Below, piece by piece: positions 6,718 through 47,546 of a stretch of DNA of 64,000 bases. Numbering within the stretch: position 1 is the stretch's first letter; each line of letters begins with the position of its first letter. A program made the translations under genes and the position numbers. A model generated the notes under the pieces. The model had not been told where the DNA came from, searched no databases, and saw only the letters and a program-made list of their open reading frames with translations. The DNA is from Mobula hypostoma (Eukaryota), in the NCBI RefSeq assembly GCF_963921235.1, contig NC_086097.1, positions 64,668,001 through 64,732,000 on the forward strand, written 5' to 3'.

Positions 6718-6914
6718 CTGAAACTGCACAGAAATGGTTGGCTGTTAACATTCCTCGATGTGCTGTTGAGATAATTGGCTAATTCATCAGTCCATTACAA
6801 CTCAAATATACAGTAGGAACAGGCAGGATAATCACATATCTTGTGCCAAAAGGATTTCTTAATTCATTTTCCCAAGTTCAGTCATTATGGACATTATAGT
6901 TTCTCTCCCTTTTT

Positions 6915-7495
6915 GCCGAGCACCTACACTCAGTCAGCCAGAAAAAGCAGCACCTCACAGTGGCCACCCATTTTAATTCTACTTCCCACGCCCATTGTAC
7001 CATGTCAGTCCATGGTCACCTCTATTGCTGCAATGAGGCCACACTCAGGTTGGAGGAACAACACCTTGTGTTCTGTCTGTGTAACCTCTAACCTGATGAT
7101 ATGAACATCAACTTCTCAAACTTCAGCTAATGCCCCCCCTTCACCATTCCCCATTTCCATTTAACCTTCTCACCTTATCTCCTTCCCTGCCCATCACTTC
7201 TCCCTGGTGCTCATTCCCCTTCTCTTTCTTCAATGGTTTCTCACCAGCCCTTTATCTCTTCCACCAATCACCCCTCTTCCTCTCCTGGTTTCACCTATCA
7301 CCTACTATCTTGTATTTCTTCCTCCCCTCCCCTCCCCTCCCCTCCCCCCAAACCTCTCACTCTGACCTCATCTTTTTTTCTCCAGTCCTAATGAAGGGTC
7401 TCGGCCCAGACTGTTTACTCTTTTCCATAGTTGCAGCCGGCCTGCTGAGCTCATCCAGTATTTTGTGTGGACTTCCAACATCTGCAGATTTTCTC
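6915..7495 (+). mobile_element. Penelope-like element 3' end (GIY-YIG C-terminus, pyrimidine-rich UTR, degenerate hammerhead terminus)
   Basis: Encodes VATHFNSTSH..MSVHG..EATLRLEEQHLVF...MNINFSNF*; eroded HHR 'cagtcctaatgaagggtctcggccc' at about 7383-7407; homologous to 45147-45637. Confidence 0.85.
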
Positions 7496-7828
7496 TTTCT
7501 CTTTTACCCACTTTTTTTTAATGAAATTGACGATGGGTCCTGGTATGAAAGATTTCCTGATCAGATTGTCTTTTGAGGATGATGCCAGAACCTGCTGTGA
7601 GTTCGTGATCCTAGTTTGTCTGCTGAACTGTTCTGGCCCCAAATTTGGTCAAAAAACAGAGCAACAAAAATCACTTGCTGATGCATTGGAGTTTTTTTGG
7701 ACAAAATTTCGTAAGGAGCCTCATAGAGGGATATTGAATCAGGTGATAGAAAATAGATTTGGAGCTATGTTTTGAAAGAAAAGGTAGCAAAATTTTAAAG
7801 GAAGATATTATGGTGGAGGAAAGAAAAC

Positions 7829-33367: not shown

Positions 33368-33833
33368 CATCATAGGCATGAACCTCCCCACCAATGAGGA
33401 CATCATGGGCACGAGCCTCCCCACCAATGAGGACATCACGGGCACGAATCTCCCCACCAACGAGGACATCATGGGCACGAATCTCCCCACCAACGAGGAC
33501 ATCACGGGCACGAATCTCCCCACCAACGAGGACATCATGGGCACGAGCCTCCCCACCAACGAGGACATCATGGGCACGAGCCTCCCCACCAACGAGGACA
33601 TCACGGGCACGAGCCTCCCCACCAATGAGGACATCACGGGCACGAATCTCCCCACCAACGAGGACATCATGGGCACGAGCCTCCCCACCAACGAGGACAT
33701 CATGGGCACGAGCCTCCCCACCAACGAGGACATCACGGGCACGAGCCTCCCCACCAACGAGGACATCACGGGCACGAGCCTCCCCACCAACGAGGACATC
33801 ACGGGCACGAGCCTCCCCACCAACGAGGACATC
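33368..33833. repeat. 33-bp minisatellite, 14 copies (unit catca[c/t]gggcacga[g/a][c/t]ctccccaccaa[c/t]gagga)
   Basis: Counted from the sequence and from the (T/M)GT(S/N)LPTNEDI repeat in ORF 33378-33992. Confidence 0.97.
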
Positions 33834-34756: not shown

Positions 34757-35041
34757 TCAAGCAACACACACAAAATGCTGGTGAACGCAGCAGGCCAGAC
34801 AGCATCCATAGGAAGAAGCACAGGCGACGTTTCAGGCCGAGACCCTTTATCTGGACTAACTGAAAGAAGAGATAGTAAGATAATCTCTTACTATCTCTTC
34901 TTTCAGTTAGTCTTGACGAAGAGTCTCGACCCGAAACGTTGACTGTGCTTCTTCCTATGGATGCTGTCTGGCCTGCTGCGTTCCACCAGCATTTTGTGTG
35001 TGTTGCTTGAATTTCCAGCATCTGCAGATTTCCTTGTGTTT
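34757..35041. mobile_element. Penelope-derived palindromic element with two degenerate hammerheads
   Basis: Inverted arms of about 125 bp meet at about 34881-34885; right-hand tail 35014-35041; near-TSD atggtctaat (34747-34756) / atgctctaat (35042-35051). Confidence 0.9.
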
Positions 35042-37134
35042 ATGCTCTAATACAATGCTCCTTGTCCTAGAAATCCCCAATGATGGATGTTCCAGGGACA
35101 ATGTAATCTAATTGTTCCTCCAATGTTATGAAGGCAGTATGGCCCAGGGAATTATGTCTATGGTTGAGCATTTGCTTCAGAATTTGCTTCAGATGTAAGA
35201 GTACGATTCTTACTAGAATTACAGGGTCTGAATTTCCAGGATGAGACCAACCAATCTGGAAAGTGTTGTTATTGCATTCACCCAGGAACTCTTCTGTTAT
35301 GTAGCACTGAAATTAACAACGCTTTGTGATGGAAGTTCCAGGCATAAGTCCTCATTCTTATCAGGAAGTTAAAAACTTAAACCATCTCCATGAAGAGTTG
35401 TTCTATCTCCCTTCCGTTTGACTGAAGTTCCTTCTGTCCTTTGACCTGTCTGTCAATTGAGGTTACAATTCATCAATTAATTACTAAAATATTCTTTTAG
35501 GTATATGTTCTCTTGAATCCAAATTCCTCTCTTTTAGGAGATCACTGCAGTTTAAATAATGAACAAGTATTAATTTTCAATATCCTCATAAACTTTAACC
35601 TGAGAACACTTGTGATTTGAGTGCAAGAATTTCCATAGGTAATGATGCCTTAAGCTAAGTGATCAATTTCACCAGAGGAATTACAGCAGTATCAGCCTGT
35701 GGTTCTGAAATACATGGCTATAATACCAGCACAAGGAATTTTATTTCACAACAGATGAAACTTGGGTTTATAACACAACCTGGGATGCTGAAAGAATGGT
35801 AGAACAATACAACGATAAAAGGAAGCCTATCTCTGAGGCAATCATGGATTACCTTATCTTTGTTTTTGCAAATTCAAACACTGCTTGAGAGCTTCAATAC
35901 TCCATCAAGAGTTTATTTTGTCCCCGCAGCTGCAAACTTATACAATGTAATTGATGTTTGAAAATGGCTGACCTCAGCGTTCTTTTGTCAAAGTTTACAT
36001 CAGTCCATGGTTTAGAGAAACACTACTCAGTAAGTGCTCAGTGTTTGCTTTGTTCAGATTTTCATAGGAAATAGGAGCACTGACCTGTTGAAGCCAGCCT
36101 GAAGCGCAGGCAGATGAGGGTTGGAAATACAAAAACAAAGTGCATTAGTTGATATTTTGCTTTACTGTTTAATGAGAGAGCATTGATTTATTTTTTTGAT
36201 CTTTATATTTCTGTCTTATTTGCTTTCCTGGATCAATATATGCATTGTATAATAGAATCAATTACCTATTATAGAATATATGAACTGATGTAGCAAGGCA
36301 AATTATTCTTTAGCTAAGGTAACTCCAAAAAAACCTCCATTAAACCATTGCCAACTTTTGAAATTACTGGGGGGAAAAAAGGCTGGCAGAAAGGTCTAAG
36401 GTCCTTTCCAACACATGTGGAACAAATTCCGCAACACTATCCAACATCCACAGTCACAAGAATCCATTTTACATTTGAGTTGTGGAGAAAGTATCTAAAG
36501 GATTCTTTAATGCTTCCATCAGTTGTTCAAGGTGCATATTTATGCAGAAATTACCTGCGCTCCCTCCGTGAGACTTTGAACTGCTGCTCTATCAATTGTT
36601 GGCTGAGATTACCAGAGACAGCAGAGTACACAAGGCTGTCTGCTCTGGACTCAGATGTAAAAGAGAGCTGTTTATACTCAGCAACTGATTAGCCAAGTCA
36701 GTCAATATTTGCATGATGAGAAGATAATCAGTTCTTTATGTGAAACTGGTTTTAATTTATCCAGGAAGAAAGTTCCTGGCTTGATAAGTAGTTTTGTCAC
36801 AAAGAGCCAATCTAACAACAGTACGGGGCGGAAATCCCTTTAGGCTGGTTTCAGGCCTGAATTAGACACCTCATTGGGGACAGCAGGGTGGCTCACAGCC
36901 AACAAAAAAATGGAACCACAGACTTCATTATTTGACCAAGCTGTTGGCGCTTGTGGCGGATTGCCCATTTTCAAAAACCAGTGGAGAGGATGAGGAAGCA
37001 ATGGGAGAACGAACCCTGCTTCTCCTGGCTTCACAAGAAGGTTAAAATATGGGCTGCAATTCCAACATTGGCTTCAGTTCCACCATTCGGTTCTGCAAGA
37101 GGCCCCACACAGGGTTTCTGTCTCACCTCCAAAT

Positions 37135-40967: not shown

Positions 40968-41092
40968 AGTAAACAGTCGACGTTTCAGGCTGAGACCCTT
41001 CAGTAGTCTTGATGAAGTGTCTTGGCCCAAAACGTTGACTGTTTGCTCATTTCCATAGGTGCTGTCTGGCCTGCTGAGTTCCTCCAGCATTT
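40968..41092. mobile_element. Minimal back-to-back Penelope hammerhead palindrome (degenerate)
   Basis: 'aaacagtcgacgtttcaggctgagacccttca|gtagtct|tgatgaagtgtcttggcccaaaacgttgactgttt'. Confidence 0.8.
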
Positions 41093-42210: not shown

Positions 42211-43537
42211 ATTTGGCAGGGGAATAGAAACCGGAATGAAAAGGCTTAGGATGGGGCAGGCAGTTAGTATACAACTAGATGCAGTGTGTAGTGAAACTGT
42301 GAGGAAAGACAAGCAAATGATAGGGCAAAATTGCTGTCGGTGGGATGAGTTAGTGTAACAGGTGATCAAAATCAAAAAGGGTGATGAGTACAGGACTAAA
42401 GGTGCTAAATTTGAATGAACACCATATATGGAACAAGGTAGATGATCTTGTAGCACAGTAAAAGATTGACAGTTATGATGTGGGCATCTCTGAGTCACGG
42501 ATCATAGTTGGTGGCTTTAACATCCAAGAATACATATTATATCGAAAGAACAGGCAGGTAACAGAGGGAGTGGGGTGGCTCTATAGATTAAAAAAATAAA
42601 TCAAACCCTACAAAAGAGGAGACAGAGGATTGGAAAAAGTCAAGTCTTTGTAGGTTAAGAAACTGCAACGGTAAAAAGACCCTGATGGGAATTATATACA
42701 GGCCTCTGAAGAGTAGCCAGGATATGGGCTACAAGTTACAATGGGAGATAGAAAAGGCACGTCAAAAGGGCAATGTTGCGAACATCATGGGGGATTTCAA
42801 TATGCAGGTAGTTTGAGAAAATCAGGTTGGTGCGAAATCCTGAAGAGAGGGAATTTTTAGAATGCCTATGAGATAACGCTTTAGAGCATCTTGTGGTTAA
42901 GCCCATTGGGGAATGGCAGTTCTGTACTGGGTGTTATGTAATGACAAAGATATGATTAGGGAGCTTAAGGTAAAGGAACCCTTAAAGGTAAGGACATAGA
43001 ATATGGCAAAAATTAGTTGGAAGGTAGAGGATAGGGAAGCTTTTAAGAACCAACTGAAGACAACTTTTAAAAAAGGCCATAAAGAAAGAAAAGATGAACT
43101 ATGAATATAAGCTAGCCATTAATATAAAAGAGCACACAAAAAGTTTTTTTAGATACAGTCTTTATATAAAGAGAGACAGCGATTGGACAGGCTGTTGAAA
43201 AATGCTCGTGGAGTGGTTATAATGGGAGACAAGGAAATGACGGATGAACTTAGTAACTGGGTCGAATCGGGAAAAGATGAACTATGAGGGCAGGCTAGAC
43301 AATAACATAAAGCAGGATGCCAAAAGTTTTTTTTTACATTATATAAAGAGTAAAAGGAAGGAGAAAGTTGATATTGGACCACTGGAAAATGATGCTGGTG
43401 AGGTAGTAATGGAGGACAAAGTAACGGCAGATGAACTTCAAACAACAGGAATTCTGCATATGCTGGAAATTCAAGCAACACACATCAAAGTTGCTGGTGA
43501 ACGCAGCAGGCCAGGCAGCATCTCTAGGAAGAGGTAT

Positions 43538-43573
43538 AGTCGATGTTTCAGGCCGAGACCCTTCGTCAGGACT
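43538..43573 (-). ncRNA. Minimal type I hammerhead ribozyme (core intact, stem III palindrome mutated)
   Basis: Minus strand: agtc CUGACGA agggucucggccu GAAA cauc gacu. Confidence 0.75.
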
Positions 43574-43720
43574 AACTGAAGGAAGAGTTAGTATCTAACT
43601 TCTTCGGTGTAGGCATCACCGGAAGAGGCTTCGCAGTAGTGAATTTTAAAAAGCGCAAACAACAGGAATTCTGCACATGCCTACACCGAAGAAGTTTAGA
43701 TACTAACTCTTCCTTCAGTT

Positions 43721-43756
43721 AGTCCTGACGAAGGGTCTCGGCCTGAAACGTCGACT
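43721..43756 (+). ncRNA. Minimal type I hammerhead ribozyme (intact)
   Basis: agtc-CTGACGA-agggtctcggcct-GAAA-cgtc-gact: stem I agtc/gact, stem II hairpin, palindromic ACGU stem III, GUC cleavage triplet. Confidence 0.88.
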
Positions 43757-44730
43757 GTACCTCTTCCTAGAGATGCTGCCTGGCCTGCTGCGTTCACCAG
43801 CAACTTTGATGTGTGTTGGCAGATGAACTTAATGGGTACTTTGCATCTGTCTTCACTGTGGAAGACACCAGCTGTGTGCCAGAAGTCCGTGAGTGTCAGG
43901 AAGCAGCAGTGAGTGCCGTTGCTATTACAAAGGGAAAAGTGCTAGGCAAACTCAAAGGTCTTAAGGTGGATAAGTCACCTGGACAGATGAACCACATTCC
44001 AGAGTCCTGAAAGATGTTGCAGAAGAGATAACAGATGCATTGGTCATGATCTTTTAAAAATCACTTGATTCTGGCATGGTCCGAGAGGCCTGGAAGATTG
44101 CAGATATCACTTCACTCTTTAAGAAGGGAGGAAGGCAAAAGAGAAGAGATTATAGGCCAGTTAGCCCAACCTCAGAGGTTGGGAAAGTGTTAAAGTCTAT
44201 TATTAAGGATAAGGTTTCAAGGTACTTGGAGATTACCTGGCCCTTAATACCCAGAAGACCAAGGAGATCATTGTGGACTTCAGGCATGCTAGGAGCCACA
44301 CTCACGTCCCTATCTACATCAACGGGGCTGTAGTGGAGCGTGTATCAAACATCAAGTTCCTTGGTGTCCGCATTTCTGAGGATCTCACCTGGCCCCTGAA
44401 CTCCTCCATCCTGATCAAAAAAGCGCAGAGTATCAAGAAAGCTCACCTCTGTCCCAGGATACTGACGGACTTTTATTGCTGTACCATTGAGAGCATACTC
44501 ATCAACTGCATTTCAGTGTGGTATGCCAATTGTCCTATATTGGACTGCAAAGCACTCCAGTGTGTGGTGAAAACTGCCCAGCGGATTATCAGCAACCAAT
44601 TGCCCACCATTGAGAACATCTACCATAAACGCTGACATGAGGAATTCTGCAGATGCTGGAAATTCAATCAACACACATCAAAGCTGCTGGTGAACGCAGC
44701 AGGCCAGGCAGCATCTCTAGGAAGAGGTAC

Positions 44731-44766
44731 AGTCGACGTTTCAGGCCGAGGCCCTTCGTCAGGACT
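44731..44766 (-). ncRNA. Minimal type I hammerhead ribozyme (intact)
   Basis: Minus strand: aguc CUGACGA agggccucggccu GAAA cguc gacu. Confidence 0.88.
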
Positions 44767-45539
44767 AACTGAAGGAAGAGCTAGTAAGAGATTTGAAAGT
44801 GGGAGGGGGAGATCCAAAATGACACGAGAAGACAGGAGGGGGAGGGATGGAGCCAAGAGCTGGACAGGTGATTGGCAAAAAGGATATGAGAGGATCATGG
44901 GACCGGAGGCCTGGGGAGAAGGAAAAGGGGGAGGGGGGGGAAACCCCAGAGGATGGGCAAGGGGTACAGTCAGAGGGACAGAGGGAGAAAATGGAGAGTG
45001 AGAGAAAGAATGTGTGTATATAAATAAATAACGGATGGGGTACGAGGGGGAGGTGGGGCATTAGCGGAAGTTAGAGAAGTCAATGTTCATGCCATCAGGT
45101 TGGAGGCCACCCAGACGGAATATAAGGTGTTGTTCCTCCAACCCAAGCCACACTCAGGTTGGAGGAACAACACCTTATATTCCGTCTGGGTAGCCTCCAA
45201 CCTGCTGTCATGAATGTTAACTTCTCTAACTTCCGCTAATGCCCCACCTCCCCCTTGTACCCCATCCGTTATTTATTTACACACTTCTTTCTCTCACTCT
45301 CCTTTTTCTCCCTCTGTCCCTCTGACTATACCCCTTGCCCATCCTCTGGGGTTTCCCCCCCTCCCCCTTTCTTTCTCCCCAGACCTCCTGTCCCATGATC
45401 CTCTCGTATCCCCTTTTGCCAATCACCTGTCCAGCTCTTGGCTCCATCCCTCCCCCTCCTGTCTTCTCCTATCATTTTGGATCTCCCCCTCCCCCTCCCC
45501 CTCCCACTTTCAAATCTCTTACTCACTCTTCCTTCAGTT

Positions 45540-45575
45540 AGTCCTGACGAAGGGTCTCGGCCCGAAACTTCGACT
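45540..45575 (+). ncRNA. Minimal type I hammerhead ribozyme (core intact, stem III ACGU changed to ACUU)
   Basis: agtc CTGACGA a gggtctcggccc GAAA cttc gact. Confidence 0.75.
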
Positions 45576-47546
45576 GTACCTCTTCCTAGAGATGCTGCCT
45601 GGCCTGCTGCGATCACCAGCAGCTTTGATCTGTGTTGCTACCATAAACGCTGCCTGGGCAGGACAAAAAGCATTATCAGGGATGCATCTCACTGTAACCA
45701 TGGTGGGCATGTTACTCTCCTCCCATCTGGTAGGTGCTACAGGAGCCTCCGCTCCCGCACCAGCAGGCACAGGAAGAGCTTCTTCCCTGAGGCTGTGACC
45801 CTGCTGAACCTCACATCACAGCACTAAGCAGTATTGCACCCATATTGAACTGACTCAGTACTTTTATATTTGTGTACTGTAGCACTTACTTTTTATTTGC
45901 AGTTATTTTGTAAGTAACACTATTCTTTGCATTTCTGGTTGATGCATTTCATTGGCTTTGTATCTGTACTCGGCACAATGACAATAAAGTTAAATCTAAT
46001 CTAATGAGGAAATAAGTCAAAGTCAGCCTGGTTTCTGTAAAGGGAATCTTGCTTGACAAACCTGTTAGAGTTCTTTGAGGAAGTAACAAGCAGGGTGGAC
46101 AAAGGAGAGGCAGTAGATGTCATTTTCTTGGATTTTCAGAAGGCATTTAGTAAGGTGCCACACAGGAAACTGCTTAACAAGATAAAATTTTATGGCTTTA
46201 CAGGAAAGAAACTGGCATGGATAGAAGAGTGGCTGACAGGCAGAAGGCAGCGAGTGGGAATAAAAGGGACCTTTTCTGGTTGGTTGCCAGTACTACTGGT
46301 ATTCCTAAGGGGTCAGTATTGGGATTGATGCTTTTCACATTGTTTGTCAATGATTTAGATAATTGAATTGATGGCTTTGTGGCAACGTTTGTGGATGATA
46401 TGAAGATAGATGGAGGGGTAGGTAATGCTGAGGAAGCAATGCAATTGCAGCAGGACTTAGACAAATTGGAAGAATGGGCAAAAAAAGTGGCAGATGGAAT
46501 AGTGTTGGGAAATATATGATAATGCATTTTGGTGAAAGGAACAATAGTGTGGACTATTATCTAAATGGGGAGAAGGTTCAAACATCAAAGGTGGAGAGGG
46601 ACTTAGGAGTCCTCGTGCAAGACTCCCAGAAGGTTAATTTACAAGTTGAGTCTGTGGTAGAGAAGGCAAATGTAATGTTAGCATTTATTTCAAGGAGAAT
46701 AGAATATAAAGCCAGAGATAATTCTGAGCCTTTATAAGACACTAGTCAGGCCATACTTAGAGTATTGTTAACAGTTTTGGGCCCCATATCCCAGAAAGGA
46801 TGTGTTGTCATTAAAGAGAGTCCAGAGGAGGCTCACAAGAATGATTCCAGGAATGAAGGGGTTAACACATGAGGAGCTTTGGCAGCTTTGGGCCTGTACA
46901 CACTGGAGTTTAGAAAAATGTTATGGGGAGGGGTGTTGGGATCTCATTGAGAGCTGCCAAATGTTGAAAGGACTAGATAGGGTGGATGTAGAGAGGATGT
47001 TTCTATGGTGGGGGTATCCAGAAGTAGAGGGCACAGCCTCAAAATTGAGGGGCAACCTGTTAGAACAGAGGTAAGGAGGAATTAATTTAGCCAGAGAGTA
47101 GTAAATCTGCAGAATGCTCTGCCACAGACTGCGGTGGAGGTCAAGTCCATGTGTATATTTAAGGCGGAAGTTCATCATTTCCTGATTAGGGCATCAAAGG
47201 ATATGGCAAGAAGGCAGGTATATGGGGTTGAGTAGGATCCAGGATCAGCCATGTTGGAATGTCGGAACAGACTTGATGGGCTGAATGGCCTAATTCTGTT
47301 CCCATTTCTTATAGTCTTATTTTGCCTCAGTCTTCACTGTGGAAGACACTAGCATTATGCTGGAAATTCGAGAGTGTCAGGGGGCAGAAGTGAGCACAGT
47401 TGCTATTACTAGTGAGAAGGTGCTTGGGAGCTGGTAAGTCTGAAGGTAGATAAGATACCTGGACCAGATGGACTACAAATCAGGGTTCTGAAGAAGGCAG
47501 CTGAAGAGATTGTGGCAGCATTAGTAATGAACTTTCAAGAATCAAT

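Follow-up and report, generated by a model that had tools for sequence, protein, structure and literature searches.

How did a 379-base insert at positions 43439-43817 of the 64,000-nt stretch of Mobula hypostoma DNA analyzed here (referred to as the window) come to carry a 217-nt unit that begins anew after one complete reading and then turns into an inverted copy of itself? A preliminary description of this locus took the arrangement as the footprint of a retrozyme-like tandem or circular RNA derived from a PLE, and as a possible retrozyme family arising from its parent in a cartilaginous fish.

Anatomy of the insert and its target site

The insert is flanked by a TSD of 13 bp, identical in its two plus-strand copies, which map to 43426-43438 on the left, within an older LINE fragment, and to 43818-43830 on the right. 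This 13-mer occurs exactly twice in the window, with a chance expectation of ~2e-5 when 20 nt of slack is allowed at each end. The interrupted LINE, which we take to be CR1-like, reads in frame as GPLENDAGEVVMEDKVTADEL up to 43438 (ending VTADEL), and NGYFASVFT picks up again at 43831. A local duplication is also apparent in the LINE fragment to the left of the insert (43088-43438), with direct repeats 183-187 nt apart and 73-78% identity.

Within the insert, the first bases (43439-43463) reappear at 43656-43680 as a second, partial reading of the same minus-strand tail (25 nt, of which 24/25 are identical) at a spacing of 217 nt, which would be expected by chance at ~8e-9. At a 4-nt microhomology (ATGC; 43677-43680) that mirrors 43613-43616, the sequence then switches into an inverted arm of 141 nt on the plus strand (43677-43817), consisting of 20 nt of leader, a junction and a pLTR without tail. 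This arm is the reverse complement of 43477-43616 bar two substitutions, both transitions, and a 1-nt indel; direct and inverted arms differ at 3/141 positions and are separated by a 60-nt loop. The preliminary description had therefore rendered the layout faithfully, since the 13-bp TSDs, the repeat of ~24 nt found 217 nt further on, and the switch at a shared ATGC into an inverted copy are all borne out. Its statement that the unit had been copied more than once needs qualification: the 25-nt repeat is real, but the 217-nt unit is present only 1.1 times. Tandem Repeats Finder returned seven rows in the window, none of them at the insert, which evidences the lack of a tandem array at this locus. 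Elsewhere in the window, a minisatellite spans 33368-33833 (33-nt unit, 14.1 copies, 95% matches). The GC content of the 217-nt unit is 0.465 (46.5%), and no ATG-initiated ORF of at least 30 aa lies wholly inside the insert, in keeping with the absence of coding capacity asserted beforehand.

The parent family and its other copies in the window

The first 155 nt of the insert (43439-43593, minus strand) make up its direct arm, that is, the pLTR and tail of an endonuclease-bearing PLE, and match the terminus of a 1-kb copy at 44635-45637 with 95% identity across 147 nt. The latter is a 5'-truncated PLE that retains the ORF end, the 3' UTR and the pLTR, arranged as a near-perfect palindrome with a 15-bp TSD and a one-sided tail. 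It is hosted by a retroelement fragment (44240-44634 and 45638-45830) that itself interrupts a LINE, rendering three nested layers as judged by eye. The ORF end of the 1-kb copy encodes a GIY-YIG C-terminus and shares 83% identity over 77 codons with P0002, a protein named from Mobula hypostoma. P0001 and P0002 both match GIY-YIG below the Pfam cut-off (E 4.6e-4 for P0002), and in a set of 85 longer relatives, the RT family PF00078 is present in most and PF01541 in many. An older PLE 3' end at 6900-7497, with ~75 codons of a GIY-YIG C-terminus, a CT-rich UTR and a decayed pLTR, served as protein query. Inspection by eye uncovered a Cys-rich linker in P0001-P0003 and, because this is a feature described for Neptune elements (PMC8557442), this linker suggests a Neptune-type parent.

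Features that define EN+ PLEs are found both in the 1-kb copy, where a pLTR with a minimal hammerhead is joined to the ORF end, and in the insert, which has an inverted 5'-truncated partner, a one-sided tail of 30-40 nt and a TSD. The insert is a non-coding PLE derivative, made from the terminus of a very abundant PLE. A further palindrome, composed of pLTR only and belonging to a related PLE subfamily, lies at 34762-35043 and also bears a one-sided tail. Indeed, the insert, the 1-kb copy and the 34762-35043 copy each form a head-to-head palindrome in which a single arm carries a 35-40-nt tail, and their best terminal direct repeats measure 13, 15 and 8 bp, respectively. The layout of the insert (inverted arms, one-sided tail, TSD) thus recurs in 2/2 other palindromic copies examined in the window. 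A decayed fragment of the hammerhead region was additionally noticed at 40973-41089, with a short inverted piece (40973-41001) just ahead. A comparable layout is on record for a rotifer PLE, whose direct pLTRs are accompanied by an inverted pLTR shorter by 37 bp, a tail of 31 bp and a TSD of 9 bp, and of which an internally deleted derivative exists (PMC3846280).

The probable leader segment and its junction with the pLTR

We compared the region 43390-43710 with Logan contigs from 4 of 24 listed runs, which cover two organisms with two runs each (one guessed to be DNA, the other RNA). Depths summed over contigs do not equate to copy numbers, and run X1 may be the source sample of the window. 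Loose ends of the contigs cluster at 43439 and at 43470-43476, which are the two ends of the PLE tail (43439-43476, minus strand; 37-38 nt), a stretch present only at this end of the insert and missing from the inverted arm. In vitro, such a tail was reported to be the stretch between two internal RT start sites, with both target strands being extended (PMC11167929), and the tail of the insert is likely the first RT start site. Because the same layout occurs in the window copies and in published PLEs, and because contig ends coincide with the tail limits, the inversion in the insert is not special; it is the ordinary layout of a PLE insertion.

The 62-nt segment at 43594-43655 (minus strand) had been described as missing from the 1-kb PLE copy, and BLASTN confirmed its absence there; within the whole window, this search found no match to the segment other than its own 20-nt mirror. 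Across 43599-43653, summed contig depth amounted to 3.9e4-1.0e5 in X1 and 1.0e4-3.5e4 in X4, as compared with 7.99 for a locus-specific contig. In the three runs listing them, the loose ends before 43439 yield a consensus (agreement 0.42-0.44) that ends like the letters preceding the second tail copy. High depth and loose-end consensus together identify the segment as an abundant parent-family sequence directly downstream of the tail, and it is both high copy and downstream of the tail in the contigs of the two organisms. Its position and abundance make it likely that the segment is the 5' leader of the parent or the start of its ORF, and the earlier guess that 43594-43655 represents the parental leader is thereby strengthened. 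When a 48-aa open stretch over the leader was used as a protein query, 26 candidates were obtained, with no match at E up to 10; tblastn of 234 proteins against the insert yielded short, chance-level matches only; and pattern scans for the leader and for the pLTR/hammerhead returned 0 matches in viral, genome and metagenome contigs. No full-length parent PLE was retrieved by the contig scans or the protein search. The contigs of both organisms also revealed a second abundant family, which has only the hammerhead region (~43538-43573) in common with the insert and diverges on both sides of it (loose ends at 43538 and 43573).

The junction between pLTR and leader (43593/43594) is found at the tip of a small hairpin (43586-43600, plus strand; 6-bp stem, 3-nt loop); in the inverted arm, the stem is 4 bp long. 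Depth at 43596 was 187 in X1, 100 in X4, 9.6 in X10 and 0 in X17, the latter two being RNA-guessed runs from which no bearing on expression is taken. X1 peaks at 1.4e7 over the pLTR and at 1.0e5 over the leader; the junction represents 0.2-0.5% of leader depth in X1 (0.3-1.0% in X4) and ~1e-5 of the pLTR peak, and a summed depth of 187 is compatible with one to ~20 loci. A 104-nt X1 contig with a mean depth of 7.99 matches 43623-43710 without difference, crosses the inversion point and the inverted-arm junction unbroken, and allows 0-4 further exact copies, assuming that its last 16 letters follow the window. In organism B (X4), one contig (depth 11.5) has the spelling of the inverted arm, with an extra A behind 43596, and another (depth 7) reaches 43698; these contigs could represent the ortholog of the insert or another copy of the junction. 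Overall, pLTR-leader junctions are scarce, and in the best run their depth is roughly that of a single locus. Other pLTR positions are tied to tail or leader by 10 of the 15 listed joints (of 72), at depths of 4-31, the intervening letters being not known. Close head-to-tail joins thus recur in the PLE family, with breakpoints that differ each time. One such joint connects 43500 to 43597. We do not interpret it as a recurrent break at 43597, as the letters in between are not known and 43597 is just the point at which likeness to the window sets in.

These data bear on whether the structure exists as assembled. Extreme repetitiveness of the family, together with the lack of a listed contig covering the whole stretch, would suit an assembly artefact or a chance stacking of separate insertions. 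Against both stand the perfect 13-bp TSD with resumption of the host frame, the contig that crosses the inversion point without difference (in X1, maybe the source sample) and the three sites at which the arms differ, as expected of separate aged copies, and we consider this explanation highly improbable. Deletion after insertion is likewise rejected, since the junction is present in both arms (barring conversion between them). The proposal of a non-autonomous mini-element formed by joining pLTR to leader can be retained to the extent that the insert derives from a PLE, has no coding capacity and contains a segment found behind the tail in the parent family, but its status as a family finds no such backing, the junction being rare and at roughly single-locus depth.

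Hammerheads, copying mechanism and known systems

A motif scan identified minimal hammerheads in both arms of the insert, a type-I motif at 43538-43573 in the direct arm (minus strand; predicted cut after 43542) and an intact one at 43721-43756 in the inverted arm (plus strand; predicted cut after 43752). The direct-arm motif carries one change in the palindromic helix-III tetranucleotide and one in stem I and, judging by its letters, has lost the palindromic tetranucleotide needed for a dimeric helix III. The insert has one hammerhead per strand, the two motifs lying on opposite strands. What had been called a hammerhead unit therefore does contain the motif in both arms, but in a mutated version in the direct arm, while the intact version lies on the opposite strand. 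Rfam searches of the window at gathering score gave 0 matches; the 11 matches found at E up to 10 were mostly hairpin-driven miRNA models far below gathering scores, included no hammerhead, and were rejected. Either strand of the insert folds into one long hairpin of ~-297 kcal/mol, in which 7/7 core positions are paired at a probability of 1.0. The locus is hence predicted by folding to be inert, with the hammerhead buried in the hairpin and neither cleavage nor circle formation.

Could the 217-nt spacing nonetheless reflect a hammerhead-processed circular RNA of 217 nt, or a tandem retrozyme transcript, that was reverse-transcribed 1.1 times and founded a nascent non-LTR retrozyme family? 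Published criteria for non-LTR retrozymes comprise tandem units, a canonical type-I hammerhead, a unit of 150-450 nt, GC <50%, a TSD >4 bp and a non-coding sequence (PMC7229834), and in size and composition the insert conforms to them (217 nt, GC 0.465, a 13-bp TSD, non-coding), with no ORF on the sense strand. More-than-unit copying of circular PLE RNA has been proposed since 2014 (PMC4209133), non-LTR retrozymes are reported from the one chondrichthyan genome sampled in bioRxiv 10.64898/2026.07.22.740005, and the 217-nt unit folded as a circle (58% paired) is slightly, though not compellingly, better than shuffled sequences (z -1.8; 8/200 shuffles as good). However, the insert contains no tandem array, as it lacks at least two consecutive units each with a complete hammerhead, and offers a single motif per strand. 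This motif is minimal, not a canonical type-I hammerhead with helix III and loop contacts, and minimal motifs are dimer-dependent with low reported activity (PMC4209133), although they are also accepted as retrozyme hammerheads in bioRxiv 10.64898/2026.07.22.740005. A retrozyme monomer needs two same-sense hammerheads according to the latter source; here they would have to lie 217 nt apart in the source sequence, and none of this kind was seen. Furthermore, the one PLE studied in vitro did not require cleavage, and its reads neither started nor ended at the cut site (PMC11167929). The junction, besides being rare, is separated by 51 nt from the cut predicted at 43542 and is therefore not a ligated cleavage site; a circle would thus need a genomic tandem bearing the junction, and none was seen. 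We regard this origin as unlikely, and the same low probability applies to a retrozyme caught at birth, in which both nicked strands would have been primed at two PLE start sites on a 217-nt pLTR-leader RNA, circular or tandem, with one RT going round more than once. Of the preliminary description, we thus do not uphold the retrozyme family, given the lack of a tandem array and single hammerheads on each strand that are both buried in the fold, nor the hammerhead-made circle, given a junction placed 51 nt from the predicted cut and on the apex of a small hairpin.

The explanation that we favor, with about even confidence, is that the insert is a one-off or very low-copy by-product in which RT treated a linear RNA like a circular template. 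The PLE endonuclease would have cut the LINE fragment with a 13-nt stagger, and RT would have started internally, at the tail end of a pLTR-tail-leader RNA, both steps being modeled on PMC11167929. RT would next have copied 155 nt and halted at the upstream pLTR limit, which is also the place of fold-back in another window copy, before snapping back a few bases and hopping by microhomology to the single-stranded leader ~60 nt downstream of the first start. Leader and 25 nt of tail would have been re-copied until a stall, plausibly on the enzyme's own RNA:cDNA hybrid. The cDNA end may then have folded back onto its own strand at the 4-nt microhomology, and extension over 141 nt up to the tail boundary would have produced the usual inverted arm.

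Three clues suggest the RT as the source of this structure. The junction lies 4-6 nt from the position to which the centre of the 34762-35043 copy, that is, its fold-back point, maps; and it occupies a hairpin apex, whereas the parent sequence there has no such hairpin. This hairpin was found post hoc and has a background of 0.6-1.9% for the 6 bp of the direct arm and of 6-20% for the 4 bp of the inverted arm. In addition, the two tail copies of the insert (T and C) depart at the same site from the G present in 3/3 other window copies and, because both deviate at one position, they weakly suggest that a single tail was read twice. Reverse transcription more than once round a 217-nt unit, as first proposed, keeps the apparent double reading of the tail but probably loses its circular or tandem template.

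The main rival to this copying of a linear RNA emerges from the 1-kb copy. Both arms of the latter bear a variant found at 0.4% of family depth in X1, which indicates that the arms of one insertion share a template. The 13 nt of its central loop, however, belong in sense orientation to the tail-less arm, an outcome not given by simple fold-back from a tailed cDNA; either the two target ends were primed independently, or the palindrome later suffered an asymmetric deletion. Under independent priming on RNA, the junction must already have been in the template, which would point to a low-copy deleted master. In that case, the template would be the linear transcript of an older copy, either internally deleted or nested (pLTR-tail-leader plus pLTR-tail), which is SIDE-like, exists in one to few copies and was mobilized in trans, with the usual inverted arm. 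Such a master is a tentative possibility. The junction is found in both arms and so is older than the inversion, the centre of the 1-kb copy hints at separate priming, organism B provides a contig with the extra-A spelling, and pLTRs suffice in cis, an internally deleted derivative with inverted pLTRs and a TSD being known (PMC3846280). Conversely, the inverted-arm junction resides on a contig of locus-specific depth, two separate pLTRs are unlikely both to deviate at the same tail position, and the junction hairpin suggests a join made by RT, though possibly in an earlier generation.

As most likely read, the insert is one more rearranged copy of a hugely amplified PLE, and its value is modest and mechanistic. 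It places a rare junction in both arms, and the genomic count of this junction would tell fold-back from twin priming as the source of the inverted arm; how tandem and inverted PLE structures are made is described as undefined in PMC8557442. Were the junction to recur at independent loci or in tandem, the locus would provide a base-level example of retrozyme- or SIDE-like budding from a PLE. If the insert does record a retrozyme at birth, it would document directly, at the level of single bases, both the copying of small circles by PLE machinery and the origin of retrozymes through fusion of a pLTR with the leader of its parent. A PLE origin of animal retrozymes has already been argued from co-occurrence and pLTR phylogeny (bioRxiv 10.64898/2026.07.22.740005).

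In the literature searched, which was covered in part and exclusive of preprint supplementary tables, no paper on the ray PLE family or on the exact structure was found, and the insert is best placed by comparison with several described systems. With Pen2a_Av and the deleted Pen2 derivative (PMC3846280; PMC8557442) it shares an inverted partner shorter by ~37 nt, a one-sided tail of 30-40 nt, a TSD, an internal deletion and insertion into another retroelement, but its body spans only 62 nt, its upstream direct repeat 25 nt, and its inverted arm bears the deletion junction. PAc, a Poseidon element of the green anole (PMC11167929), uses two RT starts that bracket the tail, matching the two contig-end clusters of the insert, whose parent is probably of the Neptune type, a different clade; a hop back onto the same RNA is not among the PAc products in the accessible text of that paper. 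Like the minimal hammerheads of metazoan PLEs (PMC4209133), those of the insert have a short helix I, a longer helix II, no helix III loop and a palindromic 15.2-16.2 segment; the difference is not one of kind, as only the direct-arm copy is mutated, and the same source explicitly describes such hammerheads in pairs, on opposite strands and separated by 100-700 bp. Animal non-LTR retrozymes (PMC7229834) resemble the insert in unit size, GC below 50%, long TSD, non-coding nature and pLTR relation to PLEs, yet the insert has an inverted architecture, without tandem same-sense hammerheads, a canonical type-I motif or a sign of amplification. Finally, R2 SIDEs (short internally deleted elements; PMC3414825) join the 5' and 3' ends of a ribozyme-bearing retroelement, as the insert would if its 62-nt segment is the leader, and RT is reported to jump templates in vivo; they belong, however, to another retroelement class and propagate as families.
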